64,000 nt of DNA. It comes from an uncultured Thermoleophilia bacterium. GTDB taxonomy: Bacteria; Actinomycetota; Thermoleophilia; UBA2241. A program made the translations under genes and the position numbers. The notes beneath the pieces were generated by a model, which was not told the DNA's origin, did no database searches, and worked only from the letters and a program-made list of their open reading frames with translations. The DNA is taken from NCBI GenBank assembly GCA_963747935.1, contig CAVVGY010000005.1, forward strand, positions 197,620 to 261,619, given 5' to 3'. Of this stretch, positions 43,554-64,000 are shown in pieces. Numbering within the stretch: the first letter of the stretch is position 1; every line of letters begins with the position of its first letter.

Positions 43554-43597
43554 CGTGACCATTCCGAGCAATCAGAGATGAGAAGGGAGGTGCGCCC

Positions 43598-45064: not shown

Positions 45065-45108
45065 ACGCCCGCCGCCCGTAACGGCTCGAGGGCGAGCACC
45101 AGCAGCCC

Positions 45109-45150
45109 GCGGACGCCCGCGGCCGGCAGACGCCGGCCGCGGGCGTCCGC
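45109..45150 (+). terminator. Perfect 19-bp stem-loop after mttB
   Basis: GCGGACGCCCGCGGCCGGC-AGAC-GCCGGCCGCGGGCGTCCGC. No U-tract. Confidence 0.6.
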
Positions 45151-45263
45151 GTACGTGCGTCCGCGCTTCCGCGGCTGCAGGACCACTGCGCCGCAGGCGT
45201 CCGCCCTCGCAGCACTCGCCGCCTCGCGAGGGGAGGAGAGCGCCGTCGGCCTCCTCTGAGAAC

Positions 45264-45335
45264 GGATATCCGTCGGCTCTCCGTATCGAGTAGCCCGGGC
45301 GCAAGGGCGCCGAGATGGATATCCATCGGCTATCC
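45264..45335. repeat. Pair of 19-bp palindromes (GGATATCCGTCGGCTCTCC / GGATATCCATCGGCTATCC) spaced 53 bp start to start
   Basis: Motifs at 45264-45282 and 45317-45335. Same motif and same spacing as 63920-63991. Confidence 0.7.
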
Positions 45336-45606
45336 GGGAACAGAGCGCCCCGCCACTGTCTCCCGCCACTGCCCCACGCCGCGGAGCCGGCCGCAGGCTG
45401 CGAGGTTCCAGTGCAGTCTCGCTTTTTGGATTCCTTACCGATTCTCACTTCATCAGGCACTAAGTGCTCCAGTTGGCGGTAATCTCGTCACGAACCGACG
45501 AAAAGTGCCACTATCGGTTCAGAATCCATCGCTGAGCGGTTGTCAGCCGTCAGTCTCGGTGCTACTCTCGGAACGACCAAATCACGAGCAATCGAGGAGC
45601 CGCTCC

Positions 45607-46341
45607 ATGAACAACAAGATCGTCCCGCTCTGGTCCGTACCGCGGTCTATCTCCACCGGCTTCGAGCGCATGATGTTCGAGCGCGGCGACTTCAAGGTCA
45701 TCCACGAGCCCTACGGCTACTTCTTCTACCTCGAGGCCGCGCACAAGGAGCCCGTGGGCATGCAGCCGCAGGAGGGTCATCCGCAGACCTTCGAGGGCAC
45801 GACCGAGATGATCGAGGCCGCCGCGACCGCCGACAAGCCGGTCTTCTTCAAAGACATGGCGTACTACGTCAGCGACGTGGCGGACGAGGACTTCATGAAG
45901 AAGTTCACCAACACGTTCATCATCCGCGACCCCGCCCTCACGCTCGTCTCGTACCACAAGCTCGACCCCACGGTGACCCTGCGCGAGATCGGCTTCGAGT
46001 CGCAGTTCAAGCTGTTCGAGCTCGCCAAGAAGATCACCGGCGAGGTGCCGGCGGTCGTCGACGCCGAGGACCTGCTCATCGACGCCGGGTCGGTGGTCAA
46101 GCAGTACTGCGAGAAGGTCGGCATCCCGTTCCTGCCCGAGTCCCTCACCTGGAAGCCCGAGTTCAAGCAGGAGTGGAAGGACTGGGAGATGTGGCACCTG
46201 GACGCCGGCGACAGCACCGGCTTCCAGAAGGACATGGAGGACTTCGGCTACACGGTCGACGACGTGCCCGAGCTCAGGGAGATGTACGACAAGTGCCAGC
46301 CTCTGTACGAGAAGATGTACGCGGAGCGGCTCAAGCCGTAA
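45607..46341 (+). CDS. Sulfotransferase-family protein
   Basis: ATG 45607 after GAGGAG. N-terminal WSVPRSISTGF resembles the PAPS 5'-phosphosulfate-binding loop. Sits directly upstream of sat and a SulP permease. Family assignment is tentative. Confidence 0.6.
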   Translation: MNNKIVPLWSVPRSISTGFERMMFERGDFKVIHEPYGYFFYLEAAHKEPVGMQPQEGHPQTFEGTTEMIEAAATADKPVFFKDMAYYVSDVADEDFMKKFTNTFIIRDPALTLVSYHKLDPTVTLREIGFESQFKLFELAKKITGEVPAVVDAEDLLIDAGSVVKQYCEKVGIPFLPESLTWKPEFKQEWKDWEMWHLDAGDSTGFQKDMEDFGYTVDDVPELREMYDKCQPLYEKMYAERLKP

Positions 46342-46444
46342 CGAGCCTCGTTCGTATCCCCGGGAGGGCCTCCGAGCTGGGGGCCCTCCCGCTGGGATCC
46401 TCCACCTCCGCGACCGCGTCCGTGACCCTGCCGGGAGTCCTGCC

Positions 46445-47662
46445 GTGAACCAGCGTCCCGAGAACTGCGAGCTCATCTCGCCCTTCGGCGGCGGGCCTCT
46501 GGTCGACCTGGTGGTCCACGACCCCGACGAGCGCGCCGCGCTGCTCGAGCGGGCCCAGAACCTGCCTGTGGTGCCGCTCTCGTTGCGCGCCCAGTACGAC
46601 CTCGAGATGCTCGCGGTGGGCGCGTTCTCGCCGCTGGACAGGTTCATGCCGCACGACGAGTACGAGTCGGTCCTCTACGAGATGCGCCTCGAGGGCGGCG
46701 AGCTGTTCCCCATCCCGCTCGCCGTGCCCTGCCGCGAGGAGGTCCTCCGCGGGCACCCGCGCGAGATCGCGCTGTCGGACGAGGAGGGCGTCATCCTGGC
46801 CCTGCTCGAGGTGGACGAGGTCTACCCGGCCGACATCCTGCGCGAGATGCGCGCGGTGCTGGGCGGCCGGGACAGCGCGCACCCGCTCGTCATCGAGGCC
46901 AAGGGCTGGCCGAGTCACTATCTCGCCGGACGCCCGCGCGTGCTCGACCTGCCGCGCCACCGGCTGCACGGACCCATGTGCCTCACGCCGGCGGAGTTGC
47001 GCGCGCGCCTCGCCACCATGGGCAACTCGACCGTGGTGGCGTTCCAGACGCGCAACCCCATGCACCGCATCCATGAGGAGCTCACCAAGCGCGCGCTCAG
47101 GACGGTCGGCGGCACGCTCCTCATCCATCCGGCCGTGGGCGTCACGCGGCCCCAGGACGTCGGCGCGGCGCTCCGTGTGGAGGCCTACGAGGTCCTCGTG
47201 CACAACTACTACGACTCGTCGAACACGCTGCTCTCCCTCATGCCTCTGGCCATGCGCTTCGCCGGGCCGCGGGAGGCCGTGTGGCACGCGATCATCCGGC
47301 GCAACTACGGCGCCACCCACATCATCGTGGGGCGGGACCACGCCGGGCCTGGTCCCGACTCGCACGGGGTGCCGTTCTACGGGCCCTACGACGCGCAGGC
47401 CATGGCCGAGCACTACTCGCACGAGATCGGGGTGAAGACCATTTTGGCGCGGGAGCTCGCCTACCTCACCGACGAAGACCGCTACGTGGAGCTCAACGAG
47501 GTCCCGTACGGCGCGCGCGTCTCTTCCATCTCGGGCACGCAGGTGCGCGAGGAGTACCTGGCCAAGGGCAAGAAGCTGCCCGAGTGGTTCACCCGTCCCG
47601 AAGTCGCGGAGGTCCTGCAGCGGGCGTACGCGCAGGCCGGCGATGCGGCGCCCGGCGCCTGA
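46445..47662 (+). CDS. sat: Sulfate adenylyltransferase (ATP sulfurylase, Sat type), no APS-kinase domain
   Basis: FQTRNPMHRIHEELTKRA...GRDHAGPG... Confidence 0.9.
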   Translation: MNQRPENCELISPFGGGPLVDLVVHDPDERAALLERAQNLPVVPLSLRAQYDLEMLAVGAFSPLDRFMPHDEYESVLYEMRLEGGELFPIPLAVPCREEVLRGHPREIALSDEEGVILALLEVDEVYPADILREMRAVLGGRDSAHPLVIEAKGWPSHYLAGRPRVLDLPRHRLHGPMCLTPAELRARLATMGNSTVVAFQTRNPMHRIHEELTKRALRTVGGTLLIHPAVGVTRPQDVGAALRVEAYEVLVHNYYDSSNTLLSLMPLAMRFAGPREAVWHAIIRRNYGATHIIVGRDHAGPGPDSHGVPFYGPYDAQAMAEHYSHEIGVKTILARELAYLTDEDRYVELNEVPYGARVSSISGTQVREEYLAKGKKLPEWFTRPEVAEVLQRAYAQAGDAAPGA

Positions 47663-50588: not shown

Positions 50589-51177
50589 TCAGGAGGAGAG
50601 TTCGTCTCCGTCGAGGGTCACTCCGTCCCCGCTCGGAGCCGGCCCGAGGCCGACGTCCTCGCCCTCCCAGTTGTAGAAGAACTTCTCGGTGCGCAGCACG
50701 TTCCACGTCTGGGTGCCGGCGATGCCGTCGATCTTCTCGAGGTCCTCGTTGAGGAACTTGAACAGGCCCTCCATGTGCGGCAGGTAGGCCTGGATGATGA
50801 TGTCGAAGTTGCCGGCCACGTAGGCGACGTAGGCCACGTTCTCCATCTCCGCGAGCCTGCGCCCGACCTCGCGGACCTTGCCGCGCTGCACGTTGATGCC
50901 GACCATGGCGTCGATGGGGAAGCCGATGGGCGCCGGGTTGATGCGCGCCGCGTTGATGATGGCCCCGGCGTGCACCAGCCGGTCGATGCGCTTGCGCACG
51001 GTGGGCTCGGAGAGTCCGACCGGTGCGGGCGATGTGGGCGTAGCTCAGGCGCGCGTCGTGGCGCAGCAGCTTCATGATCTGACGGTCCACGTCGTCAAGC
51101 TCTATGGTACCGTGGGGCAGGGAGCCCTGACGGACGATTGGTTGGCTTTCGCTTTGGCTATCGCTTTCGCCGTTCAT
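50589..51177 (-). pseudogene. Lrp/AsnC family transcriptional regulator, frameshifted at about 51021
   Basis: HTH half (LDDVDRQIMKLLRHDARLSYAHIART) and the continuation (VGLSEPTVRKRIDRLVHAGAI.. plus RAM/AsnC_trans_reg domain) are in adjacent frames. Start is ATG 51177 or GTG 51237. Confidence 0.8.
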
Positions 51178-51310
51178 AAGAGCGAAGTATAGCGATTCGC
51201 CACGAATCTGTTCAAGGAACTGTTCGGAATCCGTCACTTCACCTATGAATCCGCAGGTTCCGTCTTGTCAGCCCTGCGCTCGCGGTGGTAACCTCTCCTC
51301 TCAAGGACGC

Positions 51311-51340
51311 TTGACAGACGGGTGACTCGATGACCATAGT
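51311..51340 (+). promoter_or_regulatory. Candidate promoter TTGACA-N18-CATAGT of the ABC importer operon
   Basis: -35 at 51311-51316, -10 at 51335-51340. Confidence 0.45.
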
Positions 51341-51352
51341 GTCGTTCGTGTA

Positions 51353-51367
51353 CCCACCCGGGTGGAT
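51353..51367. promoter_or_regulatory. Operator palindrome CCCACC-CG-GGTGGAT, site 4
   Basis: 13 nt downstream of the -10. An extra CCACCC half-site lies about 20 nt further on. Confidence 0.6.
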
Positions 51368-51536
51368 GGTCACTGGGCCACCCATCCGGAGAGCGTCACA
51401 GGGGTGTGCAGAGCCGGGGGGCTCGCTGCGGGCGGTGTGACCTACCATCGTTCCGCATTCCCTGCCTCCTGGGCGCGTGTGAGAGCAAGTGTGAGACTGG
51501 ACCTTCAGGTAACGACCAAGACAGGGGGACGGGAAC

Positions 51537-53181
51537 GTGACTGACAAGGATCAGCGCAGTCCATCAGGGTTCGAGGAGATCGGCGAGCTCGTCAACGGCA
51601 AGCGCATCTCGCGCCGCAGCCTGATCAAGGGCGCCGCCGCGATGGGCGCGGTCGCGGCTCTGGGACCGATCGCCGCGGCGTGCGGCAGCAGCAGCAGCGA
51701 CACCGGCTCGTCGGCCAGCCCGGCGGCGGGCGCCAGCGCCACCAAGGGCGGCGACCTCATGGTCGGCATCGTCGGCGGCTCGGCCAAGGACACGGCCGAC
51801 CCGCACACCGGCTCGTACGAGCCCGACATCGCCATCCAGTACATCATGTACGAGGGCCTCACCGCGTGGGACTTCGACATGAACCTCACCAACCTCCTGG
51901 CCGAGACCATCGAGCCCAACGCCGAGGGTACCGTCTGGCAGGTCAAGCTGCGCGACGGCGTGACGTGGCACGACGGCAAGCCCCTCACCGCCGACGACGT
52001 GGTGTACTCGCTGGACCGCATCGTCGACCCGAAGGACCCGAAGGTCGGCGCCGCCGCTCTCACCGGCGTCACCAAGGGCGGCAACAAGAAGGTCGACGAC
52101 GAAGACCGTGGAGATCACGCTCTCGACGGCCAACGTGCTGCTGGACGAGAACCTGGCGGAACGCAGCTGCAAGATCGTGCCCGTGGGCTTCGACCCGAAG
52201 GCCCCGATCGGCAGCGGCCCGTTCAAGATGCTCGAGATGAAGCCCGGTGAGTCGTTCAAGTGGGCCAACTTCACCGAGTACTGGAACACGCCCGCGTATG
52301 TCGACACGCTCACCATGATCGAGTACGCCGACGACACGGCGCGCATCAACGCTCTGCAGAGCGGCCAGATCCAGGCCATGTCGCAGCTTCCGAAGAGCCA
52401 GGCCAAGGTCATCGAGGCCACGGACGGCCTGGCGCTCCTCAACGCCGAGACCGGTGCGTGGCGTCCGTTCACCATGCGCATCGACGCCAAGCCGTACAGC
52501 GACGTGCGCGTGCGGCAGGCGTTCCGGCTCATCGTCGACCGCCAGCAGATGATCGACCAGGCGTACAGCGGCCTGGGCGCCGTGGCCAACGACATGTACG
52601 CCCGGTACGACGCCGGTACGCCGCAGCTCGAACAGCGCGTGCAGGACATCGAGCAGGCCAAGTCCCTGCTCAAGCAGGCCGGCTACGACAACAACCTCAC
52701 CGTCGAGCTCGTCACCTCCGAGGGCGCGCTGGGCGGCGACGAGGTCGCAGCGGCGCAGGTGTTCGCCGAGCAGGCCAAGGCCGCCGGCGTCACGGTGAAG
52801 ATCAAGAAGACCGACGCCAGCGTCTTCTACGGCGACGACTACCTCTCCTGGCCGTTCGCGCAGGACTTCTGGGCCACGCGTGGCTTCCTCGCGCAGGCCA
52901 GCCAGGGCACCATGCCGGACGCGCCGTACAACGAGACGCATTGGCAGAACCCCGAGTGGCTGTCCCTGGTGCAGAAGGCGTTCAAGACCGTCGACGACGG
53001 CCAGCGCAACGACCTGATCAGCCAGGCCCAGCAGATCGAGCAGGAGACCGGCGGCTACATCGTGTGGGCGTGGCGTAACCAGGTCGACGCCTATTCCAAG
53101 ACGACCACCGGCTACAAGCTGGACAAGCTCGGCGGTCCCATCGGCCGCATGTACTTCAAGGACGTGTACTTCACGGCCTGA
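51537..53181 (+). pseudogene. ABC transporter substrate-binding lipoprotein, family 5 (Opp/Dpp/Nik type), frameshifted at 52101
   Basis: Tat-like RRSLIKGAAAMGAVAAL plus lipobox AAAC. ..GNKKVDD | KTVEITLSTANVLLDEN.. continues in the next frame. Confidence 0.85.
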
Positions 53182-53196
53182 TCGCGAGTAGACATC

Positions 53197-53235
53197 GACC
53201 GCGGGCGCGGGGTGATCCTCCCCGCGCCCGCGGTC
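53197..53235 (+). terminator. 16-bp perfect intra-operon hairpin after the binding-protein gene
   Basis: GACCGCGGGCGCGGGG-TGATCCT-CCCCGCGCCCGCGGTC. Typical of an mRNA stabiliser or partial terminator between an SBP gene and its permease genes. Confidence 0.5.
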
Positions 53236-53373
53236 CACTCCGGTGACGAGCACTGCCGCGGTGCTCGCTCGATCGTGACGTCATCCGCGGCGGCCTGTGA
53301 CCCCGCTTCCCTGTAGTTCCCCCCGAGAGGCAGTCATCATGATCAGTAGAACCGAAAGAGGGAGAGGCCGTTC

Positions 53374-54339
53374 ATGCCCCCGCTTCTGAAGCTGATCCTC
53401 ATCCGGATCGGCCTGGGGGTGCTCACGCTGTTCCTGGTGTCCATCGTCGTCTTCGTCGCGACACAGGCTCTCCCTGGCGACACCGCCAAGGCGATCCTCG
53501 GCAGGGAGGCGGTCAACAAGGAGCGGTACGAGGCGCTCAAGGAGCAACTCGGGCTCAACAAGCCGGTCGCCTCGCAGTACCTCGACTGGCTCGGCGGTGT
53601 GGTCACCGGCGACTTCGGCGACTCGCTCGTGCAGGGCTCGCCGGTCACCAGCCTCATCGGCCATCGCGTCCTCAACTCCTTCATCCTGGTGTTCGTCGCG
53701 GCTCTCGTGAGCGTGCCCGTCTCGCTCCTCCTGGGCTCCCTCACCGCGTTACGAAGAGACAGCAAGTTCGACGCGAGCGTCACCGTCGGCAGCTTGGCGA
53801 TGGCGGCGCTGCCGGAGTTCGTGATCGGCATCATCCTCATCCTGCTGTTCGCCACCCAGGTGTTCAAGATCCTGCCGGCGACGTCCCGGGTGGACTCGAG
53901 CGTGCCGATCGTGGAGCAGCTCGACCTGTTCATCCTGCCTGCGCTCACACTCACGCTGGCGGTAGCGCCGTACATCACCCGTATCCTGCGCGCCAGCACC
54001 ATCGAGGTGCTGGAGAGCGAGTACGTGATGATGGCGCGCCTCAAGGGCTTGCCCGAGCGGCTGGTGCTCAACCGGCACGCGCTCCCCAACGCGCTGGCCC
54101 CGGCGCTCCAGGTCACGGCGCTCAACCTGGCCTGGCTGGCCGGCGGCGTCGTCGTGGTCGAGTACCTGTTCGCCTTCCCCGGCATCGGCTCGCTGCTCGT
54201 CGACTCCGTCGCCAACCGCGACATGCCCATGGTGCAGGCGATCACCCTGATCATCGCCGCGGTGTACGTGGTCGCCAACCTGACGGCCGACATCCTCACG
54301 ATCCTCGTCAGCCCACGACTCAGGACGGGCCTGCGATGA
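53374..54339 (+). CDS. ABC transporter permease (DppB/OppB type)
   Basis: 321 aa, six TM helices, EAA-like loop (YVMMARLKGLPE). Confidence 0.9.
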   Translation: MPPLLKLILIRIGLGVLTLFLVSIVVFVATQALPGDTAKAILGREAVNKERYEALKEQLGLNKPVASQYLDWLGGVVTGDFGDSLVQGSPVTSLIGHRVLNSFILVFVAALVSVPVSLLLGSLTALRRDSKFDASVTVGSLAMAALPEFVIGIILILLFATQVFKILPATSRVDSSVPIVEQLDLFILPALTLTLAVAPYITRILRASTIEVLESEYVMMARLKGLPERLVLNRHALPNALAPALQVTALNLAWLAGGVVVVEYLFAFPGIGSLLVDSVANRDMPMVQAITLIIAAVYVVANLTADILTILVSPRLRTGLR

Positions 54340-55259
54340 GCACCCCAGAGATGAGAGTCAACGACTCAGAACTCGTCGAGCCGCCCGTCGTGCACGCCGA
54401 CCGCCGGCCCTCCGAGTGGATCATGATGCTGCGCGAGGCGTGGAGCATGCGCCGCACCAAGATCGGCGTCGCCATCTTCGGCGTCATCGTCCTCATCGCC
54501 GTCGTCGGGCCCTGGGTGGCGCCGTACTCGCCCACCGAGTTCGTCGCCCCGCCGTTCTCGCCGCCGGCCATCCCCAAGATGTGGCTGGGTAGCGACTACA
54601 TCGGGCACGACGTGCTCACGCGCGTGCTCTACGGCGGCCGCACAGTCATCCTGCTCGCCCTCGCGGCCACCGTCATCGGCCTCGTCCTGGGCGTGACCCT
54701 GGGACTCATCACCGGCTACGCGCGGCGCTGGATCGACGAGTCCATCATGCGCATCCTGGACGTCGTCCTCGCCTTCCCGCAGATCGTGCTCGCGCTGCTC
54801 TTCGTCTCCATCCTCGGGCCAAGGCTGTGGCTCATCGTGGTCATCGTCGGCATCTCGCACGCACCGCGCATCGCGCGTGTCGCGCGTGCCGCCACGCTCG
54901 AGGTCTCACAGCGCGACTTCGTTCGCGCGGCCGAGGCCTTCGGCATCGCCCGGTGGAAGATCCTCTTCAACGAGATCCTGCCGAGCATCACCAGCCCGCT
55001 GCTGGTCGAGTTCGGTCTTCGGCTGACCTACTCCATCGGCGTCATCGCCGCCTTGTCGTTCCTCGGGTTCGGCATGCAGCCGCCGGCGGCCGACTGGGGC
55101 CTCATGATCAACGAGAACCGCATCGGCATCATCATCCAGCCGTGGCCGGTGCTCGTGCCCGTGCTGCTCATCGGTATCCTGACCATCGGGACCAACCTGA
55201 TCGCGGACGGCCTCGGCCGCGCCTTGATCGGGATCGAACGCGACACGGGGGTGGGGTGA
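54336..55259 (+). CDS. ABC transporter permease (DppC/OppC type)
   Basis: 307 aa. Overlaps its neighbours by 4 and 1 nt. Confidence 0.9.
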   Translation: MSTPEMRVNDSELVEPPVVHADRRPSEWIMMLREAWSMRRTKIGVAIFGVIVLIAVVGPWVAPYSPTEFVAPPFSPPAIPKMWLGSDYIGHDVLTRVLYGGRTVILLALAATVIGLVLGVTLGLITGYARRWIDESIMRILDVVLAFPQIVLALLFVSILGPRLWLIVVIVGISHAPRIARVARAATLEVSQRDFVRAAEAFGIARWKILFNEILPSITSPLLVEFGLRLTYSIGVIAALSFLGFGMQPPAADWGLMINENRIGIIIQPWPVLVPVLLIGILTIGTNLIADGLGRALIGIERDTGVG

Positions 55260-57082
55260 TGGCGACGACGATCACTGACGGGACCGCTGCGACGCCGGAG
55301 CTCGTGACCGTCCTCGAGGTCGAGGGCCTGCGCATCGTCCTCGATCCTTCGGGAGTGGACATCGACGACGATGTCTCGATGGTCATCCATCGCGGCGAGG
55401 TGCTCGGGTTGGTAGGCGAGTCCGCCTCCGGCAAGACGACCGTCGGCACCAGCCTGCTCGACTACCAGCGTCGCGGCGCCAAGATCGCCGGCGGACGCGT
55501 CGAGATCGACGGACAGGACATCCTGGCGATGGACCCCGCCGCCCTGCGCGGCATCCGCGGCGGGGCCATCAGCTACGTCCCCCAGGACTCCTCGGCGGCG
55601 CTCAACCCGGCGCTGCGCATCGGCACCCAACTCATGGAGATCCTCGAGGTGCACGGCTTCGGCTCCTCGCAGGCTGACCGCGAGGCCCGCCTGACCCAGA
55701 TGATGGAAGAGGTGCTGCTGCCGTCCGACAAGGCGTTCCTGAAGCGCTACCCGCATCAGCTCTCCGGTGGCCAGCAGCAGCGCGTCGCCATCGCCATGGC
55801 GTTCGCCAACCGGCCTAAGGTCATCGTCCTCGACGAGCCGACCACCGCCTTGGACGTCACGACGCAGGCGCACGTGCTGGACACGGTCCGCGACCTCACC
55901 AAGTCCTACGGGGTCGCGGCGCTCTACATCACCCACGACCTCGCCGTCGTCTCCAACCTCGCCGACCGCATCGCTGTCATGTACGCCGGGAGGGTCGTCG
56001 AGGTCGGCACGCGCGACGAGCTGTTCGACCAAGGGCATCACCCGTACACGCGCAAGCTGCTCGCCTCCATCCCCGACATCACCGGGGAGCGCGCGCTGCG
56101 CGGCATCTCCGGCTGGGCGCCGCGCCCGGGCCAGCGACCGAGCGGCTGCGCCTTCACGCCGCGCTGCGACTGGGCGGTCGACAAGTGCAGCGAGGCGTTC
56201 CCGCCGGTCGAGGATGTGAGCCCCGGCCACCACGTGCGCTGCTGGCGCTACAAGGAGGTCGGCGCGCAGGCGGCCGGGCTCGACATCCTGCTGCGCGACA
56301 AGTCGCTCTCGGCTCCTCAGGCACAGGAGAAGCAGGTCATCAGCGTGCGCGACGTGACGGCCTACTACCAGCACAAGGAGATACTTCACGGCATCAACGC
56401 GAGCCTCAGCGAGCGCCGCTGCCTGGCGCTCGTCGGGGAGTCGGGGTCCGGCAAGACGACCCTGGCGCGCTGCATCGCCGGCCTGCATCGGCACAAGATC
56501 GTCGGCGACATCGACTTCATGGGCAAGCCGCTCGCGCGCGACGCGCGTGGCCGGCCGCGCTCGACCCGCCAGTCGATCCAGTACATCTTCCAGAGCCCCT
56601 ACAGCTCGCTCAACCCACGCAAGACGATCGCCCAGATCATCTCGCAGCCGCTGAAGGTCTTCTTCGACCTCTCGCGCGACGAGATGGAGGACCGGATGGT
56701 GAAGGCGCTCGAGCAGGTGGCGCTCGACTCGTCCCTGCTGAGCCGCTACCCGGACCAGCTGTCCGGCGGCGAGCGTCAGCGTCTGGCCATCGCGCGCAGC
56801 CTCGCCGCCGAGCCGACGGTGCTGATCTGCGACGAGGTGACCTCGTGGCTGGACGTCTCGGTACAGGCGGCGATCATCGAACTGCTGGCGGCCCTGCAGC
56901 GCGACATGGATCTCTCGATGCTGTTCGTCACCCACAACCTGGCCCTGGTGCGCAGCATCTCCCAGGAGGTGGCGGTGATGAACGACGGCCGCATCGTGGA
57001 GTACGGGCTCGTCGACGCGGTGCTCGAAGACCCGCAGGCCGACTACACGAAGAAACTGCTGTCGGACACGCCGACGGTGTAG
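55259..57082 (+). CDS. Fused double ATP-binding subunit of the Opp/Dpp-type ABC transporter
   Basis: Two Walker A motifs (GESASGKTT, GESGSGKTT) and two signature motifs (LSGGQQQRV, LSGGERQRL). Stop is TAG 57080-57082. Confidence 0.9.
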   Translation: MATTITDGTAATPELVTVLEVEGLRIVLDPSGVDIDDDVSMVIHRGEVLGLVGESASGKTTVGTSLLDYQRRGAKIAGGRVEIDGQDILAMDPAALRGIRGGAISYVPQDSSAALNPALRIGTQLMEILEVHGFGSSQADREARLTQMMEEVLLPSDKAFLKRYPHQLSGGQQQRVAIAMAFANRPKVIVLDEPTTALDVTTQAHVLDTVRDLTKSYGVAALYITHDLAVVSNLADRIAVMYAGRVVEVGTRDELFDQGHHPYTRKLLASIPDITGERALRGISGWAPRPGQRPSGCAFTPRCDWAVDKCSEAFPPVEDVSPGHHVRCWRYKEVGAQAAGLDILLRDKSLSAPQAQEKQVISVRDVTAYYQHKEILHGINASLSERRCLALVGESGSGKTTLARCIAGLHRHKIVGDIDFMGKPLARDARGRPRSTRQSIQYIFQSPYSSLNPRKTIAQIISQPLKVFFDLSRDEMEDRMVKALEQVALDSSLLSRYPDQLSGGERQRLAIARSLAAEPTVLICDEVTSWLDVSVQAAIIELLAALQRDMDLSMLFVTHNLALVRSISQEVAVMNDGRIVEYGLVDAVLEDPQADYTKKLLSDTPTV

Positions 57083-57182
57083 AGGGCTCCGGCGGCGGGC
57101 GGACGCAGCTCCGCCCGCCGCCGGACGCCTTGCCCCGCCAGACCCATCGAATCGACCTGAGCAACAAGATCGGAGGAGGCCG

Positions 57183-58634
57183 ATGCGTGCCCACATGACC
57201 TGGCTGGACGAGGCCGAGAAGCGGTCGTTCGTCGACGAGGCGCTGGGGATCCTCGAGCGCGTGGGCGTCGAGCTCAAGGGGTCGGCGGCGCTGCCCGTCC
57301 TCGCCGACCTCGGGGCGGACGTCGACTTCTCCACCGGGGTCGTCCGCCTGCCGGCCGAGCTTGTACGGGACACCGTCGAGGCCTGCCCGCGCCGGGTGCT
57401 CTTCGCCGGCGCGTCGCCCGAGTACGACGTGGTACTGGACGACGGGGAGCCGGCACACTTCTGCTCCTCCGGCTGCGCCGCGTTCGTGCTCGACCACGAG
57501 ACCGGCGTCCGGCGTCCCTCCACGCTCACCGACCTTCAGTCGGCCACGATCCTGCTGGACGAGGTGCCCGAGGTCGACGTCATGTGGACCACCATCACGG
57601 CCGGCGACGTGCCCGTGGAGGTCCGCGAGCTGGTCGTCTGCTACGTGGTGCTCACCGAGGCGCGCAAGCACGTGACCCTGGTCGACAGCCCGTCGCAGGC
57701 CGAGCCGCTGCTGCGCATCATGGACATCGTCTCCGGCGACGCGGAGGCCTTCCGCGCGCGGCCGCGGTTCAGCACGCTGCTCACCGCGGCGTCCCCGCTG
57801 CGCATCGACGGCCCGCTGCTCGACTTCCACGCGGTCACGGCCGGTCGCGGGGCGCCGGTGGAGGTCTACACGGTACCCATGGCCGGCGCCACCTCGCCGG
57901 TGACGCTCGCGGGCACCATCGTCCAGGGGCTCGCGGAGTTCCTCGGCGTCGCCACCGCGCTGCGCGCGCTCGCCCCGGAGGCGCGCGTCGTCATGGGCGT
58001 GTCCGGCTCGACCATGGACATGCGCTCCGCCGGCGTCTCGTACGCTTCGCCGGAGTGCACGCTGATGAACGTCGCCTGCGTGGAGCTCGCGCACCACCTC
58101 GGCGTGCCGGCGGCGGTGCCCGGCCTCGCCACCGACGCCAAGTACGCCGGCCTGCAGGCGGGCTACGAGAAGGCGCTCAAGGGTCTCGCGACGGCCGGCG
58201 TGGGCGCCGACGTGCTCAGCGGCGGCGTCGGCATGATCGACTCGGTGAACACGCTGTTCCTGCCGCAGATCGTGCTGGACGCGGAGGTGGTGGGCATGAT
58301 CCGCCGCATCCTGGGCGACGTGGACACGAGCCCCGAGGCGATGCTGGCGGACATGATCGCGCGGGTCGGCATCGGCGGCGACTTCCTCAAAGAGAAGGAG
58401 ACCGCCAGGCGGCTGCGCGCGGGCGAGCACTTCTCGCCGGCGATCTCGTCGCGCCAGGCCTACGACCAGTGGGTCGCGGACGGGCGCGACGAGGTGGCCC
58501 GCGCCCGGGAGCGCATGGATGCGCTCTTCGCGGCGCGGGCGGAGCGGGGCCGCCCGCTCGGCGACGAGCAGCGGGCGGAGCTCGCGCGCGTCTGCGGCGT
58601 CACGCCGGAGATGGCGCGCGCCCTCGGCGACTGA
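57183..58634 (+). CDS. MttB-superfamily methyltransferase without pyrrolysine, second paralog
   Basis: 483 aa. Pyl-equivalent column reads PG-L-ATDAKYAGLQAGYEKAL. Confidence 0.85.
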   Translation: MRAHMTWLDEAEKRSFVDEALGILERVGVELKGSAALPVLADLGADVDFSTGVVRLPAELVRDTVEACPRRVLFAGASPEYDVVLDDGEPAHFCSSGCAAFVLDHETGVRRPSTLTDLQSATILLDEVPEVDVMWTTITAGDVPVEVRELVVCYVVLTEARKHVTLVDSPSQAEPLLRIMDIVSGDAEAFRARPRFSTLLTAASPLRIDGPLLDFHAVTAGRGAPVEVYTVPMAGATSPVTLAGTIVQGLAEFLGVATALRALAPEARVVMGVSGSTMDMRSAGVSYASPECTLMNVACVELAHHLGVPAAVPGLATDAKYAGLQAGYEKALKGLATAGVGADVLSGGVGMIDSVNTLFLPQIVLDAEVVGMIRRILGDVDTSPEAMLADMIARVGIGGDFLKEKETARRLRAGEHFSPAISSRQAYDQWVADGRDEVARARERMDALFAARAERGRPLGDEQRAELARVCGVTPEMARALGD

Positions 58635-58702
58635 CCACGAGGCGCCGCCGGCGCCGCTGCGGCGGTCCGGGCGGCGGCGCCCCGGCATGAACGCGAGCGC
58701 TG

Positions 58703-58731
58703 TTGACACCCGGGCGGGCAGCACTTAAGTT
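58703..58731 (+). promoter_or_regulatory. Candidate promoter TTGACA-N17-TAAGTT of the aminotransferase operon
   Basis: Hexamers at 58703-58708 and 58726-58731. The operator starts at the next base. Confidence 0.55.
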
Positions 58732-58745
58732 TCCACCTGGGTGGA
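58732..58745. promoter_or_regulatory. Operator palindrome TCCACC-TG-GGTGGA, site 5
   Basis: Abuts the -10 element, the same layout as site 3. Confidence 0.65.
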
Positions 58746-58766
58746 TACCGGAGGAGAGGAAGGACC

Positions 58767-60155
58767 ATGGCAGATCAGGGACAGGCGCCGGCCGACGGGG
58801 TCAAGGAGGAGTTCCTCGAGCAACACCTCTGGCCGCCGTTCACGCAGATGCAGGGCCTCAAGCCCGTCGTCATGGAGCGCGCCGAGGGCGCGCTCGTGTG
58901 GGACAGCGACGGCAACGAGTACATCGACGCCTTCGCCAGCCTGTGGACCGTCAACGTCGGCCACGGGCGCAAGGAGATCCACGACGCGATCAACGCGCAG
59001 ATGGAGAAGCTCTCCATCTACCACATCTTCCAGATCGCCAACGAGCCGGCGGTCAAGCTGGCGAACAAGGTCGCGGCGCTGGCGCCGGGCGACCTGGACC
59101 ACGTGTTCCTCACGCTCGGCGGGGGAGAGTCGGTCGAGACCGCCGTCAAGATGGCGCGCCAGTACTGGCGCAACAAGGGCAAGGGCACCAAGTACATGGT
59201 CATGTTCCGCGAGCGCTCGTACCACGGCACGACCATGACCAGCACCAGCGCCCAGGGTCTCACCGTCAACCGCGCCAAGTTCGAGCCGCTGCTGCCCGGG
59301 TTCATCAAGCTCGGCGCGCCCTACTGCTACCAGTGCGCCTGGAACAAGACCTACGGCGAAGACTGCAGGATGGAGTGCGCCACGCAGGTCGAGCACGAGA
59401 TCGACTTCTACGGCGCCGAGAACGTCGGCACCCTGCTCGGCGAGACGATGATCGGCACCGGCGGCGTGATCCCGCCGCCGCCCGAGTACTGGCCGATGGT
59501 CAACGAGATCTGCAAGGCCAAGGACGTGCTCGTCATCAACGACGAGGTCATCACCGGCTTCGGGCGCAGCGGCACCTGGTTCGGCTTCGAGCAGTTCGGC
59601 TCGGACCCCGACCTCGTCACCTGCGCCAAGGGCCTCTCGTCCGGCTACCTGCCGCTCGGCGCCGTGATCGCCAAGAAGCACGTGTTCGAGGCGTTCCTCG
59701 GCGGCCCCGGCGAGGCGTTCATGAGCGGGGCCACCTACATGGGCCACCCGCTGTGCTGCGCGGCCGGCCTCGCCAACCTCGAGATCGTCGAGCGCGAGAA
59801 GCTGGTCGAGCGCTGCGCCGAGCTGGGCCCGTACCTGCAGGACGGCCTGCAGACGCTGCTCAAGCACCCGATCGTCGGCGACGTGCGCGGCGTGGGGCTG
59901 GTCTCCGGCATCGAGTACGTCAAGGACAAGGAGACGCACGAGTGGTTCGCGCCGGCGCAGGGCGTCGCGGCCAAGATCCGCGACGAGGCGTTCAAGCGCG
60001 GCGTGTTCGTGCGGCTGCTCGGCGGCGGCCACGTGCACGCGGTCGCGCCGCCGTTCATCATCAGCAAGGAGCAGATCGACACGGTCGTCGCGCGTCCTGG
60101 ACGAGTCGATCGGAGTCGTCGAGAAGGAACTGGGCTACTGACAATCAGGAGCTGA
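58767..60155 (+). CDS. Class III (omega) PLP aminotransferase; last ~15 codons shifted by an extra base at 60093
   Basis: ..LWTVNVGHG..., DEVITGFGRSG, PLP-Lys motif TCAKGLSSGY. The expected C-terminus VLDESIGVVEKELGY-TGA (60139-60141) is in the +1 frame. Confidence 0.85.
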   Translation: MADQGQAPADGVKEEFLEQHLWPPFTQMQGLKPVVMERAEGALVWDSDGNEYIDAFASLWTVNVGHGRKEIHDAINAQMEKLSIYHIFQIANEPAVKLANKVAALAPGDLDHVFLTLGGGESVETAVKMARQYWRNKGKGTKYMVMFRERSYHGTTMTSTSAQGLTVNRAKFEPLLPGFIKLGAPYCYQCAWNKTYGEDCRMECATQVEHEIDFYGAENVGTLLGETMIGTGGVIPPPPEYWPMVNEICKAKDVLVINDEVITGFGRSGTWFGFEQFGSDPDLVTCAKGLSSGYLPLGAVIAKKHVFEAFLGGPGEAFMSGATYMGHPLCCAAGLANLEIVEREKLVERCAELGPYLQDGLQTLLKHPIVGDVRGVGLVSGIEYVKDKETHEWFAPAQGVAAKIRDEAFKRGVFVRLLGGGHVHAVAPPFIISKEQIDTVVARPGRVDRSRREGTGLLTIRS

Positions 60156-60157
60156 AC

Positions 60158-61198
60158 ATGAGCAAGCCAAGAGTGGGAGTCGTGGGGTACGGCGTCATCG
60201 GCCAGCGACTCGCCGACGGCGTGGCGCTGCAGGGGGACATGGAGCTGGTGGGCGTCGTCGACGTCGCGCCGACGCTCTCGACGCGCGCGCTGTGCGAGTC
60301 CGGCATGCCGTACGACCTGTACGTCGTCGAGGCCGGCCAGAAGGCCGCGTTCGACGCCGTCGGCATCCCGGTCACCGGCACCATGGACGAACTGCTCGGC
60401 AAGGTCGACATCGTGCTCGACTCGTCGCCCGGCGGCGTCGGCCGCAAGAACAAGGAGCTCTACCAGGCCAAGGGCGTCAAGGCCGTGTTCCAGGGCGGCG
60501 AGAAGAACGACATCGTCGACGTGTTCTTCCACGGCTACGCCAACTACGAGAAGGGCGTCGGCAAGGACTACCTCAAGCTGACGAGCTGCAACACCACCGG
60601 CCTCATCCGCGCCGTGGACTGCCTCGACCGCGAGGTCGGCGTGGAGCGCGTCATCGTCACCATCGTGCGCCGCGTCGCCGACCCCGGCGACACGCACCGC
60701 GGGCTCGTGGACGTGGCCCAGGTCGAGCCCGTCCCGAACCACCAGGCCGTCGACCTCATGACGATCATGCCGCACATCGAGGCCACCGGCCTGCTCGTGC
60801 ACGTGCCCACCACGCACGGCCACATCATCAACGTCATCGCCACCACCAAGGGCGACATCAGCAAGGAGCGGGCGCTCGAGCTCTTCGAGGCGCACCCGCG
60901 CATCCGCAACGTCAAGATCGCCGACGGCTTCAACAGCAACTCGGCGCTGTTCCGCTACGCGCGCGACCTCGGCAACAAGCGCGCCGACATGTACGACATC
61001 GCCGTGTTCGACGAGACCATCGCCAAGAGCGGCCGCGAGTTCATGTTCGCGATCAACATCCCGCAGGAGTCGGTGGTGATCCCCGAGACCATGGACGCCG
61101 TCCGCGCGGCGCTCAGCATGCAGACCGACCGCCTCGAGGCCGTCGGGCTGACCAACCAGTACCTCGGCCTGAGCGCGCCGGTCGCCGCCAACGCCTGA
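60158..61198 (+). CDS. gap: Type II (archaeal-type) phosphorylating glyceraldehyde-3-phosphate dehydrogenase homolog
   Basis: ATG 60158 after CAGGAG. VGVVGYGVIGQR Rossmann motif and active-site SCNTTGL. Overall archaeal Gap layout. Confidence 0.8.
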   Translation: MSKPRVGVVGYGVIGQRLADGVALQGDMELVGVVDVAPTLSTRALCESGMPYDLYVVEAGQKAAFDAVGIPVTGTMDELLGKVDIVLDSSPGGVGRKNKELYQAKGVKAVFQGGEKNDIVDVFFHGYANYEKGVGKDYLKLTSCNTTGLIRAVDCLDREVGVERVIVTIVRRVADPGDTHRGLVDVAQVEPVPNHQAVDLMTIMPHIEATGLLVHVPTTHGHIINVIATTKGDISKERALELFEAHPRIRNVKIADGFNSNSALFRYARDLGNKRADMYDIAVFDETIAKSGREFMFAINIPQESVVIPETMDAVRAALSMQTDRLEAVGLTNQYLGLSAPVAANA

Positions 61199-61226
61199 CG
61201 CGCGGCGGCGGGGAGGGGGTCGCGCG

Positions 61227-62502
61227 ATGAAGTACGGCATCAACACGCTCGACGACTTCGAGTGGGGCGGCAAGACGGTCCTGTGCCGCGTGGACATCAA
61301 CGCGCCGCTCGACAAGGAGACCGGCGGGCTGCGCGACATCACGCGGCTCAAGGGGTGCGCGCCGACCGTCCGCGAGCTCGCGGAGGCGGGCGCGCAGAGT
61401 CGTGCTGCTCGCCCACCAGGGCGGCGACCTCGAGTACCACAACTACGCGTCGACGGAGCCGCACGCGGCCGTGATGAGCGAGCTGACCGGCCGGCCCGTG
61501 AGCTTCATCGACGACGTCTGCGGGCCGGCCGCGCGCGACGCGGTCGGCCGGCTCGCGGACGGCGACGTGCTGCTGCTCGACAACGTGCGCTTCTGCGGCG
61601 AGGAGCTCACGCTGTTCGAGCGCAAGCTGGACCTCTCGCCCGAGGACCAGGCCAAGACCCTCGTGGTGCGCAAGCTGGCGCCGCTCGCCGACCTCTACGT
61701 GTGCGACGCGTTCGCCGCCGCGCACCGCTCGCAGCCCACGCTGGTCGGGTTCGAGCAACTGCTGCCGTCGGCAATGGGCCGGCTGTTCGAGCGCGAGTAC
61801 GCCAACCTGGCGCGCCTGCGCGAGGAGCCGGCGCGCCCGTGCGTGTTCATCCTCGGCGGCACCAAGATCCAGGAGGCGTTCCCGATGATGGCCGCCGCTC
61901 TGGCCGACGGCGTCGTGGACACCGTGCTCACCGCCGGTCTGGTCGCCAACGTCATGCTGGCGGCGAGCGGCGTGGACATCGGCGAGCCCTCGCTGGAGTT
62001 CATCAGGGCGAGCCAGCTCGAGAGCTACATCGAGGAGTCCAGGGCCATCCTCGCCGAAGCACGGCGACAAGATCGTGCTGCCGCCGGACGTGGCGGTCGT
62101 GCGCGGCGGGGAGCGGGTCGAGGTGGCGACGGCCGACCTGCCGGTCGGCGAGCAGATCGTCGACCTCGGGCACGCGCGCCGTCGACGCGTACCGCACGGC
62201 GATCGCCGGCGCCGGCACGGTGTTCGTCAACGGCCCGGCCGGCGTGTTCGAGCAGCCCGAGACCGAGTACGGCACGCGCGCGCTGTGGGAGGCGATGGCC
62301 GCGACCGGCGGGTTCAGCGCCCTGGGCGGCGGCGACAGCGTGACCGCCATGAACCGCTTCGGACTCGCCGACCGGTTCGACTACGTGTGCACGGCCGGCG
62401 GCGCCATGGTCCAGTTCCTCTCCGGCAAGCCGATGCCGGTCATCGAGGCGCTCAAGGCGTCCGCGGCGCGGTTCGGCTGGCGGGGTGCGGACGGCGACGT
62501 GA
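61227..62502 (+). pseudogene. pgk: Phosphoglycerate kinase homolog, three frameshifts (61395, 62059, 62180); stop unresolved
   Basis: VDINAPLD | VVLLAHQGG..LLDNVRF..DAFAAAHRSQ..ILGGTKIQ | HGDKIVLPPDVAV..VDLG | VDAY..VFVNGPAGVFE..GGGDSV..TAGGAMVQFL. A TGA at 62500-62502 overlaps the GTG of the next gene but is in another frame. Confidence 0.8.
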
Positions 62503-63771
62503 ACGTCTCCATCCCCTACGGCGAAGGAGTGCTCGAGGCCGTCCTGCCGGACGGCCTCGACGTCACCGTGGTCGGCCCGGGCTGCGGGCTCGGCGAGGAG
62601 GCGCCGCCTCCGGCGGCGCCCTCCGCCGAGGACGAGCAGGCCGAGATCCGGCGTGCCCTGGCGGAGCCCATCGGCACGCCGCGCCTCTCCGAGCTCGCCG
62701 CTCGGGCGAGCAAGGCCGCCATCGTCGTCAGCGACATCACGCGGCCCTGCCCGACGTACCGGTTCCTGCCCGCCCTGCTCGACGAGCTCGGCGCGCTGGC
62801 GCCGGAGGACGTCAGCATCCTGTTCGCGCTCGGCGGCCACCGCGGCCACACGCCCGAGGAGCAGGTGCGGCTGGTCGGGCGAGGAGGTGGTGGCGCGCGG
62901 CGTGCGCCTCGTCGACCTCGACGCGTCGCGCTGCGTCCCCGTGGGGACGACCACCCGGGGCACGCGCCTCGAGGTGTTCGAGGAGTACCTCGACGCCGAC
63001 CTGCGCATCTGCACCGGCAACATCGAGTACCACTACTTCGCCGGGTTCAGCGGAGGGGCCAAGGCGGTCGTGCCCGGCCTGTGCTCGTACGCGGCGATCC
63101 GCGACAACCACAGCATGATGCTCGCGCCGACCGCCCGGGCCGGCATCATCGACGGCAACCCGGTGCGCGAGGACATCGACGAGGCCGGCGGGCTGATCGG
63201 CGTCGACTTCATCTTCAACGTGCTGCTCGACGAGCAGAAGCGCATCTTCCACGCCGTCGCCGGGCACTACCTGGAGGCGCACCGCGCCGGTTGCGAGGCC
63301 TACGACCGGCGCTGCGACCTGCGCGTGCCCACCGCCGCGGACGTCGTCATCGCCTCGCCGGGCGGGCGCCCCAAGGACATCAACCTGTACCAGGCGCAGA
63401 AGACGCTCGACAACGTCGGCGGCGCGGTCAGGGACGGCGGCGTCATCGTCCTGGTGGCGCGCTGCGGCGAAGGCTTCGGCCAGAAGGTCTTCGAGGAGTG
63501 GATGACCGGCATGGGGAGCCCGCAGGTGCTCATCGACCGCATCCAGCGCGAGTTCGTGCTCGGCGGCCACAAGGCGGCCGCCGTCGCCGGCCTGCTCGCG
63601 CGGGCGGACGTCTACCTCGTCTCGGACTTCCCCGACGAAGTGGTGCGCAGCATGTGCATGACCCCGTTCGCGACCGTCGACGCGGCGGTCGCGTCGGCGC
63701 TCGAGCGGGCCGGCGACGGCGCGAGCTGCCTCGTCGTGCCCCACGGAAGCCGTGTGACGGCCGGTTCCTGA
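62499..63771 (+). pseudogene. LarA-family (nickel-pincer cofactor) 2-hydroxyacid racemase/epimerase homolog, frameshifted at 62880
   Basis: VNVSIPYGEGVLEAVLPDG..IVVSDITRPCP..GGHRGHTPEEQVRLVG | EEVVARGVRLVDLD..GNIEYHYFAGFSGGAKAVVPG..NPVRED.. The GGAK Lys and the His-rich motifs of LarA are present. Confidence 0.8.
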
Positions 63772-63919
63772 CCTCCGTCCCGGGTGCGCCCCCCTCGCGC
63801 CCGGGTGCCGGCCGGATGATGGGCGCGGGGTGGCCGTGAAGTCGCCCCGCGCCTCTCGTCGCCGGCTCCGCACGACTGCCCGGGCCACGGGCAGTGGCCT
63901 TCAGGCGCCCTCTGCGAGT

Positions 63920-63991
63920 GGATAGCCGCCGGCTATCCATCCCGCGCTCATGTTGCCCGACGGTCGCGATCCGGATAGCCGCCGGCTATCC
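63920..63991. repeat. Pair of perfect 19-bp palindromes GGATAGCCGCCGGCTATCC spaced 53 bp start to start
   Basis: Motifs at 63920-63938 and 63973-63991. Same element as 45264-45335, and both copies end ..GG(G/T)(A/G)ACAGA. Confidence 0.7.
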
Positions 63992-64000
63992 GGTGACAGA

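Follow-up and report, generated by a model that had tools for sequence, protein, structure and literature searches.

We analyzed a four-gene operon in a 64-kb stretch of DNA (the window; contig CAVVGY010000005.1) from an uncultured Thermoleophilia bacterium, comparing it throughout by sequence with loci of relatives that extend 10 kb to either side of the homolog of its second gene. The four genes, placed at 58703–63771 in a preliminary description, are all present, consecutive and on the plus strand, as judged by Pfam, NCBIfam and third-position GC. They encode a class-III omega-aminotransferase (AT, 58767–60141; Pfam Aminotran_3, E = 3.7e-94), an archaeal-type (type II) glyceraldehyde-3-phosphate dehydrogenase homolog with an intact frame (GAPDH-II, 60158–61198), a phosphoglycerate kinase homolog (PGK, 61227–62502; PF00162, E = 3.3e-103 on the stitched protein) and a LarA homolog (LarAH, 62499–63771; Lar_N and LarA_C domains). 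The earlier start at 58703 has to be abandoned: it is the TTG of a spurious long open reading frame (ORF) and coincides with a TTGACA hexamer resembling a −35 element, and the AT really starts at 58767. Because the G+C content of the window is ∼70%, raw ORF lists are dominated by shadow frames, and frames were set by third-position GC tracks and homology instead. The interpretation that we favor, and hold to be probable, is that the four genes specify a pathway that conserves energy while converting a terminal primary amine to malate.

The 132-nt spacer before the AT contains a perfect 14-bp palindrome, TCCACCTGGGTGGA (58732–58745), which we refer to as the operator. It directly follows a promoter-like element on the plus strand (58703–58731), read by eye, that consists of TTGACA (58703–58708), a 17-nt spacer and TAAGTT (58726–58731). 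A strict sigma-70 promoter scan of 57000–64000 called no site; this one went uncalled because its −10 hexamer fits at only three of six positions. TAAGTT does fit the looser TANNNT −10 pattern, a form common in Actinomycetota. Near-identical palindromes lie at 28349, 39020, 39800 (before an operon for the methyltransferase MtbB), 39908 and 51353 (before an operon for an ATP-binding cassette [ABC] importer), the last of these downstream of another TTGACA. At up to three mismatches the operator matches 22 times, whereas 6.35 matches are expected and shuffled sequences gave at most 16. Almost all Thermoleophilia relatives (L001–L021) keep the core CCACC-NN-GGTGG ∼35 nt before the AT start, and it is also kept before the importer's substrate-binding protein (SBP) gene. 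The proposal that the AT operon shares its operator with the methyltransferase and importer operons is thus borne out, by recurrence of the palindrome before each and by its conservation in relatives.

The window copy of the operon has five to six frameshifts, which weigh against a functional pathway in this organism. The frames of the AT (near its 3′ end), PGK (in three or four places) and LarA (in one place) are broken by 1-nt insertions. Alignment of 58700–63800 with five relatives, 86%–93% identical, places these at 60089 (shifting the last ∼17 AT codons), at 61396, 62054 and 62176 in PGK and at 62880 in LarA, and each is missing from at least four of the five. A sixth insertion, removing the PGK stop, probably lies near 62470–62480: in relatives PGK ends in a TGA that overlaps the GTG start of LarA, and the window shows the same arrangement (GTGA) if one extra base is assumed there. 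The window frame otherwise reads through from PGK into LarA; a PGK-LarA fusion was set aside in favor of this one further indel, given the overlapping TGA/GTG of the relatives.

Were these frameshifts real, the operon would be a decaying pseudogene cluster, and the density of breaks (five to six in ∼5 kb, with none in the preceding ∼5 kb, 53374–58634) would fit. However, the insertions are all single-base and found in this assembly alone, the genes have neither internal stops nor deletions, third-position GC stays at ∼0.95–1.0 on both sides of every insertion, and all four genes are intact in L004, L009 and L016. Sister metagenome-assembled genomes (MAGs) of the same project carry similar private 1-nt insertions, with more than 20 in 8 kb in L021 and two within MttB in L001. 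The same error pattern is seen outside the operon as window-private 1–2-nt insertions, at 52101, where one splits the SBP gene, and in the intergenic region 51022–51444. Because the insertions are private, all of 1 nt and common in sister MAGs, we take them to be, most likely, long-read assembly errors; a pseudogene cluster is improbable, and programmed frameshifting was set aside on the same grounds.

Active sites of the dehydrogenase, kinase and racemase homologs

All substrates and activities discussed here are inferred from sequence. D-malate semialdehyde can be regarded as D-glyceraldehyde-3-phosphate (GAP) with a carboxylate in place of the phosphate. GAPDH-II would convert it, through a cysteine thioester and phosphorolysis, to D-malyl 1-phosphate; the PGK homolog would pass the phosphate to ADP, giving D-malate and one ATP; and a LarA-type malate racemase (Mar) would turn D-malate into L-malate for central metabolism. 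The balance of probability is, we think, on the side of a module that oxidizes D-malate semialdehyde with a gain of ATP.

A scan of one genome per species returned at least 558 loci with close relatives of GAPDH-II, and the best 80 were analyzed. GAPDH-II itself scores above the cut-offs of NF003251 (390.4 bits against 185) and TIGR01546 (300.1 against 232.9), and reaches only ∼250 bits against archaeal GAPDH structures. In type II GAPDH the catalytic residues are Cys140 and His219, and the phosphate of GAP is bound by Arg167 and Arg168 (PMC12041015, citing the Methanothermus fervidus structure); inorganic phosphate is bound by Ser139, Asn141, Arg167, His193 and His194 (PMC12041015). The motifs TSCNTTG, RR.ADP and THGH, corresponding to Ser139-Cys140-Asn141-Thr142, Arg167/Arg168 and His219, are kept in 80 of 80 loci. 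Retention of Cys140, His219 and the Arg-Arg anion site leads one to expect a phosphorylating mechanism on a substrate with an anionic tail. Where all four solved archaeal enzymes have the inorganic-phosphate motif SHHGPD, the 80 homologs read P[NS]HQA.D, so that His194 is Gln in all of them, as it is in 118 of the best 120 homologs in the database. We propose that GAPDH-II is a phosphorylating D-malate-semialdehyde dehydrogenase. Two observations count against this assignment: the protein passes the curated NCBI threshold for type II GAPDH, and it retains both arginines that bind the phosphate of GAP, so that GAP as a substrate is still compatible with the sequence. Every public name of the homologs is "type II glyceraldehyde-3-phosphate dehydrogenase." They number 4,030 in the database at E ≤ 1e-30, probably including true archaeal GAPDHs, and NCBIfam (June 2026) has no specific model for either the GAPDH-II or the PGK homolog.

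The frame-corrected PGK homolog matches PF00162 over positions 1–379 of 379 (346 bits), has its best PDB match in Pyrococcus PGK (2CUN) and scores above the cut-off of no NCBIfam PGK model. The basic patch of yeast PGK for the 3-phosphate of 3-phosphoglycerate (3-PG) comprises, we assume, R38, H62, R65, R122 and R170. Equivalents of D23/N25, R38, H62, R122 and R170 are kept in the homologs, and the full patch is absent, the R65 equivalent having been replaced. In every homolog covering the site, Arg or Lys has given way to G, S or D, with acidic residues and a Tyr behind it (HQGGDLEY, HQGDTLDY or HQGSDIEY, versus HLGRP in bacterial and HQGKP in Pyrococcus PGK). The loss of Arg/Lys65 and the change of His194 to Gln, both at phosphate-binding positions, fit a shorter, singly charged carboxylate tail, without proving it. 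We propose that the PGK homolog is a D-malyl-phosphate:ADP phosphotransferase.

Among NCBIfam families the LarAH is best matched by NF052593 (malate racemase LarAH6; 480.7 bits), ahead of the next family by ∼90 bits, and its best PDB match is the malate racemase Mar2 (6D6Z; 348 bits, versus ∼217 for lactate racemases). With reference to the residue roles described for the cofactor and catalytic positions of LarA and Mar2 (PMC7583248), it keeps equivalents of Asp72/Arg75, His108, His174, Lys184, His200 and Lys298, and contains the motifs SDITRP, GGHRGH, EYH..GFSGGAK, DNHS and LYQAQK. The motifs HYF, YQxQK and LGGHKA are common to the LarAHs that neighbor the GAPDH-II/PGK pair. GHK, which lies in helix 14, has been published as the signature of malate racemases and proposed to bind the second carboxylate of malate (PMC7583248). 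Both GHK and the Gln preceding the catalytic Lys are present; the loop after the catalytic His reads Tyr-Phe, not the Tyr-Lys of Mar2, in all module-linked LarAHs.

The earlier view of the LarA-type enzyme as a malate racemase is supported by the match to Mar2, the GHK motif and YQxQK, and is tempered by the score and the loop. The Thermoleophilia LarAHs reach 472–481 bits on NF052593, whose cut-off is 500, even where the gene is intact (475.9 in L004, 472.4 in L016), and at the position of Lys173 in the Mar2 substrate loop they carry Phe; both points weigh against malate as the substrate. Module-linked LarAHs of Bacillota pass the same cut-off, that of Clostridium magnum (L043) with 591.9 bits. 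No larB, larC or larE was found within ∼7 kb downstream in relatives.

The low scores and the HYF loop (HYK in Mar2) would also suit a module that oxidizes some other alpha-hydroxy aldehyde, with LarA racemizing the matching acid; sulfolactaldehyde (from 3-amino-2-hydroxypropanesulfonate), glyceraldehyde, lactaldehyde and tartrate semialdehyde are candidates. Mar enzymes also epimerize tartrate (PMC11770544), the Arg-Arg site would take any anionic tail, and the co-regulated operons have sulfotransferase-like and ATP-sulfurylase genes between them. Nevertheless, GHK is conserved, many loci carry malic enzyme, which is L-malate specific, or a DmlA-type dehydrogenase (in the relative L008 malic enzyme comes right after LarAH), and the chemistry of the inositol-type operons described below yields malate semialdehyde specifically. 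We consider a different aldehyde improbable.

Linkage of the module across bacteria

The best 80 loci are all bacterial, from Thermoleophilia, Bacillota, Chloroflexota, Desulfovibrionaceae, Atribacterota, Spirochaetia, Planctomycetota and Aminicenantes. Organisms in culture that carry the gene include C. magnum, with two copies (L040 and L043), Acetobacterium woodii and Moorella thermoacetica. GAPDH-II identity is 66%–74% between phyla and 84%–98% among most Thermoleophilia relatives, and PGK directly follows GAPDH-II in every locus whose contig reaches there (76 of 80). Among these 80 loci, AT and MttB are confined to the Thermoleophilia group (L001–L021). Gene identities, the operon with its operator, and this linkage across phyla are established directly.

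We took a census of the loci that extend at least 4 kb upstream and at least 6 kb downstream, 42 in all, clustering neighboring ORFs, annotating representatives and scoring presence or absence by tblastn. A malate-handling enzyme accompanies the pair in 36 of the 42: a Mar-type LarA in 30, malic enzyme in 15 and a DmlA/TTC D-malate or tartrate dehydrogenase in 6, all 6 without LarA. L021, in which LarA is heavily frameshifted, is a 37th locus. Six of the 42 have no malate enzyme within reach, which counts against a malate pathway. Candidate aldehyde-forming enzymes likewise occur in 36 of the 42 loci (AT in 10, a split transketolase in 18, and an E1 alpha resembling that of acetoin or pyruvate dehydrogenase in 9).

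The operons with a split transketolase bear on the identity of the aldehyde. In C. magnum (L040, 4969–20346) a single operon contains, in this order, a sugar-binding SBP, an ABC ATPase, a permease, malic enzyme, GAPDH-II, PGK, TK-N, TK-C, IolB, IolD, IolE, IolG and Mar. Cluster representatives (from L039, L060 or L040) score 983 bits on TIGR04377 for IolD, 406 for IolE and 483 for IolG; the IolB match is weaker and, at 104 bits, stays below the cut-off of 205. The combination of iol genes, split transketolase, GAPDH-II and PGK recurs in Thermincola (L039) and in L068, L038, L066 and L060, although L066 has no LarA in the stretch examined and IolB or IolG is missing from some. Such inositol-type operons occur in Clostridia, Thermincola, Spirochaetia and Chloroflexota, usually with a malate racemase and/or malic enzyme. 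None of them contains IolC, IolJ, IolA or any aldehyde dehydrogenase of the ALDH family.

IolG, IolE, IolD and IolB convert myo-inositol to 2-deoxy-5-keto-D-gluconate, which has the D-threo ketol arrangement of a transketolase donor. By stereochemical reasoning, not by computation, removal of a C2 ketol unit from the IolB product would leave OHC-CH(OH)-CH2-COO−, with its hydroxyl oriented as in D-glyceraldehyde-3-phosphate. The sole aldehyde-oxidizing enzyme in these operons is the GAPDH homolog. The product of GAPDH-II and PGK would then be D-malate, which would account for the racemase and malic enzyme, and for the D-malate dehydrogenase in loci that lack LarA. The operons are thus candidates for an undescribed transketolase-dependent inositol pathway. 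A PfkA-family phosphofructokinase gene follows the malate racemase that ends two of them (L039, 18472–19551; L040, 20416–21002); the enzyme may process the ketose phosphate formed by transketolase C2 transfer.

Beside the same GAPDH-II/PGK/Mar set, an E1 alpha/beta, E2 and E3 complex replaces transketolase in L043, L077, L062, L067 and L081 (C. magnum, A. woodii, Desulfovibrionaceae and M. thermoacetica) and could perform an analogous ketol cleavage. These loci often also carry lipoyl synthase, a molybdenum hydroxylase (XDH family), a metallo-beta-lactamase-fold hydrolase and a 3-hydroxyacyl-CoA-dehydrogenase-like protein.

The preliminary description left room for the GAPDH/PGK pair being simply glycolytic, that is, an ordinary GAPDH and PGK acting on GAP and 1,3-bisphosphoglycerate as an extra glycolytic or gluconeogenic set in catabolic islands, with the racemase and AT serving unrelated substrates. 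The NF003251 score, the retained Cys140, His219 and Arg167/Arg168, the PGK residues D23/N25, R38, H62, R122 and R170, and the name GAPDH in every public annotation are what such a set would show, and transketolases often release GAP. Against it stand the malate racemase, malic enzyme or D-malate dehydrogenase linked in 36 of 42 loci; the L040-like operons, where nothing else could oxidize the aldehyde formed after IolB and transketolase; and the family-wide loss of PGK Arg/Lys65 and GAPDH His194. Moreover, C. magnum has two copies, no plausible amine yields GAP by transamination, and no triose-phosphate isomerase (TPI) was evident by size or identity among the annotated neighbors, although no search was aimed at it. 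We regard the glycolytic explanation as unlikely.

Searches of the literature on malate racemase, malate semialdehyde, malyl phosphate, inositol with transketolase, and norcarnitine yielded no description of this module. The LarA papers mention PGK and GAPDH only as minor context COGs of other groups; they call the in vivo role of malate racemases an open question, and a linkage to GAPDH-II and PGK is absent from their text. The chances seem to us evenly divided that the loci together represent a widespread bacterial D-malyl-phosphate module, in which paralogs of archaeal-type GAPDH and of PGK supply D-malate to the largest group of the LarA family and are fed by at least three routes. The routes that form part of this reading, which as a set we would accept or doubt about equally, are a transketolase-type inositol pathway, an acetoin-dehydrogenase-like complex in acetogens, and, in soil Thermoleophilia, transamination after carnitine has lost all its methyl groups to non-Pyl and pyrrolysine-type methyltransferases.

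Co-regulated operons and the source of the amine

The AT matches PF00202 over its full length (316 bits), and among solved structures it comes closest to omega-amine:pyruvate, putrescine, GABA and beta-alanine transaminases, enzymes that convert terminal amines to aldehydes; no NCBIfam equivalog cut-off was reached. Fully demethylated L-carnitine is (R)-4-amino-3-hydroxybutyrate, the amine whose aldehyde is D-malate semialdehyde, and the AT would convert it to (R)-3-hydroxy-4-oxobutanoate (D-malate semialdehyde).

The genes under the same operator would supply this amine. Ahead of the AT operon lies an ABC importer operon (51513–57082, plus strand; operator at 51353–51366) that is syntenic with L001–L021. 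It encodes an SBP of family 5 (51513–53181, with the 1-nt insertion at 52101; Pfam SBP_bac_5 on the ortholog at L001:1336–2979) and, from translations, two permeases (53374–54339 and 54336–55259) and a fused double ATPase (55259–57082), the only gene of the importer operon for which the start was checked. The last gene before the AT operon (57183–58634, plus strand; Pfam MTTB, E = 1.9e-74) encodes a non-pyrrolysine (non-Pyl) MttB-family methyltransferase in an unbroken 483-aa frame, and a non-Pyl MttB gene also adjoins the AT in L001–L016.

Farther upstream, a methyltransferase operon assigned by Pfam (39005–45064, plus strand; operators at 39020, 39800 and 39908) comprises genes for a TetR/BetI-type regulator (39005–39736), MtbB (39818–41386), a corrinoid protein whose best NCBIfam match is the glycine-betaine-type MtgC (41397–42023), a second non-Pyl MttB (42123–43553) and a further MttB (43559–45064). 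MtbB, homologous to dimethylamine methyltransferase, and the last MttB, homologous to trimethylamine methyltransferase, each contain a single in-frame TAG at the expected pyrrolysine position (41024–41026 and 44576–44578, respectively). The regulator is an obvious candidate for the repressor that acts at the operator. In L008 the genes for MttB, TetR, MtbB(Pyl), MttB(Pyl), corrinoid protein, AT, GAPDH-II, PGK, LarAH and malic enzyme are contiguous.

Several observations concern the surroundings of these operons. The TAG-bearing MtbB and MttB occur in a high-GC, Thermoleophilia-like (Actinomycetota) genome, and the 27–64 kb part of the window showed no pylSBCD genes. Between the two operator-controlled operons, 45082–47662 encodes a sulfotransferase-domain protein and an ATP sulfurylase (PUA_2 and ATP-sulfurylase domains), whose open frames overlap at 45977–46341, suggesting another indel. 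An operator-like palindrome, TCCACCGAGGTGGA (28349–28362), has a PfkB-family kinase gene on one side and a hybrid histidine kinase/response-regulator pair on the other. In spite of that site, the 27–39 kb region, with this kinase and two-component system, guaB/guaA-like genes (IMPDH-like and GMP synthase), a flavin monooxygenase and a beta-eliminating lyase, seems to have no connection with the pathway. Just past the LarA stop, the 19-bp palindrome GGATAGCCGCCGGCTATCC occurs twice, 53 bp apart (63920–63938 and 63973–63991); these copies are absent from the Thermoleophilia relatives, so the downstream neighborhood of the window may differ from theirs.

In the route that we propose, the Opp-type importer would bring in a quaternary amine, most simply L-carnitine, and methyl groups would be removed by non-Pyl MttB from the quaternary, Pyl-MttB from the tertiary and Pyl-MtbB from the secondary amine. 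The methyltransferase set of the window thus offers one enzyme type for each methyl group of a quaternary amine. No MtmB was found in 27–64 kb, the part covered by annotation; the primary amine would pass to the AT, so that none would be needed. The three enzyme types, stripping the methyl groups in turn, would make carnitine-derived 4-amino-3-hydroxybutyrate the source amine.

Carnitine or a close analog as the feedstock of the window is a tentative assignment, to which we give somewhat less than an even chance. Two features count against it. The importer is of the Opp/Dpp type (SBP family 5), not the usual carnitine/betaine binding protein, and the MttB paralogs are only distant to any member of solved structure (∼164–167 bits). 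Because they are so distant, carnitine is only a candidate substrate. Comparison with solved MttB-family structures assigned no substrate to the two non-Pyl MttBs. A precedent for the intermediates exists in Acinetobacter baumannii, where L-carnitine has been shown experimentally to be degraded through malic semialdehyde and specifically D-malate to pyruvate (PMC11353897).

The chain first suggested for this operon, from amine to aldehyde, acyl phosphate, carboxylate plus ATP and racemized hydroxyacid by way of malate semialdehyde, gains support from the Mar-like LarA, from the linkage in 36 of 42 loci, from the inositol-type operons, which would give the same (R) aldehyde, and from that precedent.

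Read in reverse, the same genes would resemble ArgB/ArgC/ArgD: malate would be phosphorylated, reduced and transaminated to 4-amino-3-hydroxybutyrate, a precursor of a carnitine-like solute. Kinase, reductase and aminotransferase is a classic biosynthetic order, and archaeal type II GAPDH is typically anabolic and NADP-linked (PMC12041015). This direction sits poorly with co-regulation with an importer and demethylating corrinoid methyltransferases, and with the placement of the module in other phyla in transporter-containing, LacI- or DeoR-controlled catabolic operons with malic enzyme. It is also at odds with the downstream genes of relatives (L001, 13700–19100; L003, L004, L009 and L016; beyond the end of the window). 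There, LarAH is followed by genes for an FAH-family protein, an Fe-alcohol dehydrogenase, a 4-hydroxybutyrate-type CoA transferase and an AbfD/HpaB-family protein (minus strand) and an NADP glutamate dehydrogenase (plus strand), a set that looks like GABA/4-hydroxybutyrate fermentation. We judge a biosynthetic role very improbable. For the catabolic route, the same downstream genes would suit gamma-butyrobetaine as a second substrate.

Relation to known systems

If the proposed module operates as described, it would add a natural ATP-yielding reaction pair to metabolism, with glycolytic-type substrate-level phosphorylation copied for the carboxylate analog of glyceraldehyde-3-phosphate. For anaerobes the gain would be a single additional ATP on inositol, on carnitine-type compounds and on at least one more class of substrate; the commonness of malate racemases and the source of their D-malate would be explained; and module-linked homologs labeled type II GAPDH and PGK would need re-annotation. 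The model leads one to expect an inositol route new to science in Clostridia of the gut and rumen, in acetogens and in Chloroflexota, and suggests a trimethylamine-free, oxygen-independent fate of carnitine that uses the whole carbon skeleton. For metabolic engineering, it would offer natural enzymes for a malate acyl phosphate and semialdehyde, of the other regio-isomer than in the engineered route with designed enzymes.

The A. baumannii carnitine route shares malic semialdehyde (3-hydroxy-4-oxobutanoate) and D-malate with the proposed module, and in both D-malate needs a dedicated enzyme before it can enter central metabolism; DmlA-type dehydrogenases also accompany the module in loci without LarA (6 of 42). 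In A. baumannii an O2-dependent Rieske oxygenase cuts the C-N bond and frees trimethylamine, the aldehyde is oxidized irreversibly by an ALDH-family enzyme with no ATP formed, and D-malate is decarboxylated. In contrast, the module would remove methyl groups stepwise before transamination, oxidize the aldehyde with a phosphorylating GAPDH-type enzyme and a PGK-type kinase, and racemize D-malate.

Archaeal type II GAPDH and PGK have the same folds and the same two-step chemistry of thioester, acyl phosphate and ATP, and most 3-PG residues are kept in the module PGK. The module enzymes differ in having Gln194 and G, S or D at position 65, and in their placement in substrate-specific catabolic operons beside malate enzymes. 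They are never beside TPI among the annotated neighbors, for which no aimed search was made. Mar2 (LarAH6) of Thermoanaerobacterium thermosaccharolyticum shares with the window LarAH the nickel-pincer cofactor and catalytic residues, the Gln and the GHK motif, and differs in its Tyr-Lys loop, which is Tyr-Phe in LarAH; the work on Mar2 left the physiological source of D-malate open (PMC7583248).

The non-Pyl MttB systems MtgB, MtcB and MtyB of Desulfitobacterium and Eubacterium limosum (PMC8604678) pair a non-Pyl MttB with a cognate corrinoid protein, as in the window. They remove one methyl group and the tertiary amine is excreted, whereas the window co-regulates a Pyl-type MttB, MtbB and the AT as well, an arrangement that points to removal of every methyl group and use of the carbon skeleton. 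Canonical myo-inositol catabolism has its first four steps, to 2-deoxy-5-keto-D-gluconate, in common with the module operons; in these, the kinase IolC, the aldolase IolJ and the malonate-semialdehyde dehydrogenase IolA are replaced by the split transketolase, GAPDH-II, PGK, Mar and malic enzyme.

A further chemical parallel is synthetic. In the literature searched, malyl phosphate appears only as an engineered intermediate of the other regio-isomer, in a route to 2,4-dihydroxybutyrate that likewise proceeds through a malate acyl phosphate and malate semialdehyde (PMC5481828, PMC12104201). That route is engineered and reductive, passes through 4-phosphomalate and 2-hydroxy-4-oxobutanoate, and uses enzymes derived from aspartate kinase and ASD; according to its authors, no natural counterpart is known (PMC5481828, PMC12104201). 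Considered together, these comparisons are consistent with a model in which known folds and known chemistry have been turned to a new substrate and a new role in a pathway, supplied by new feeder routes.

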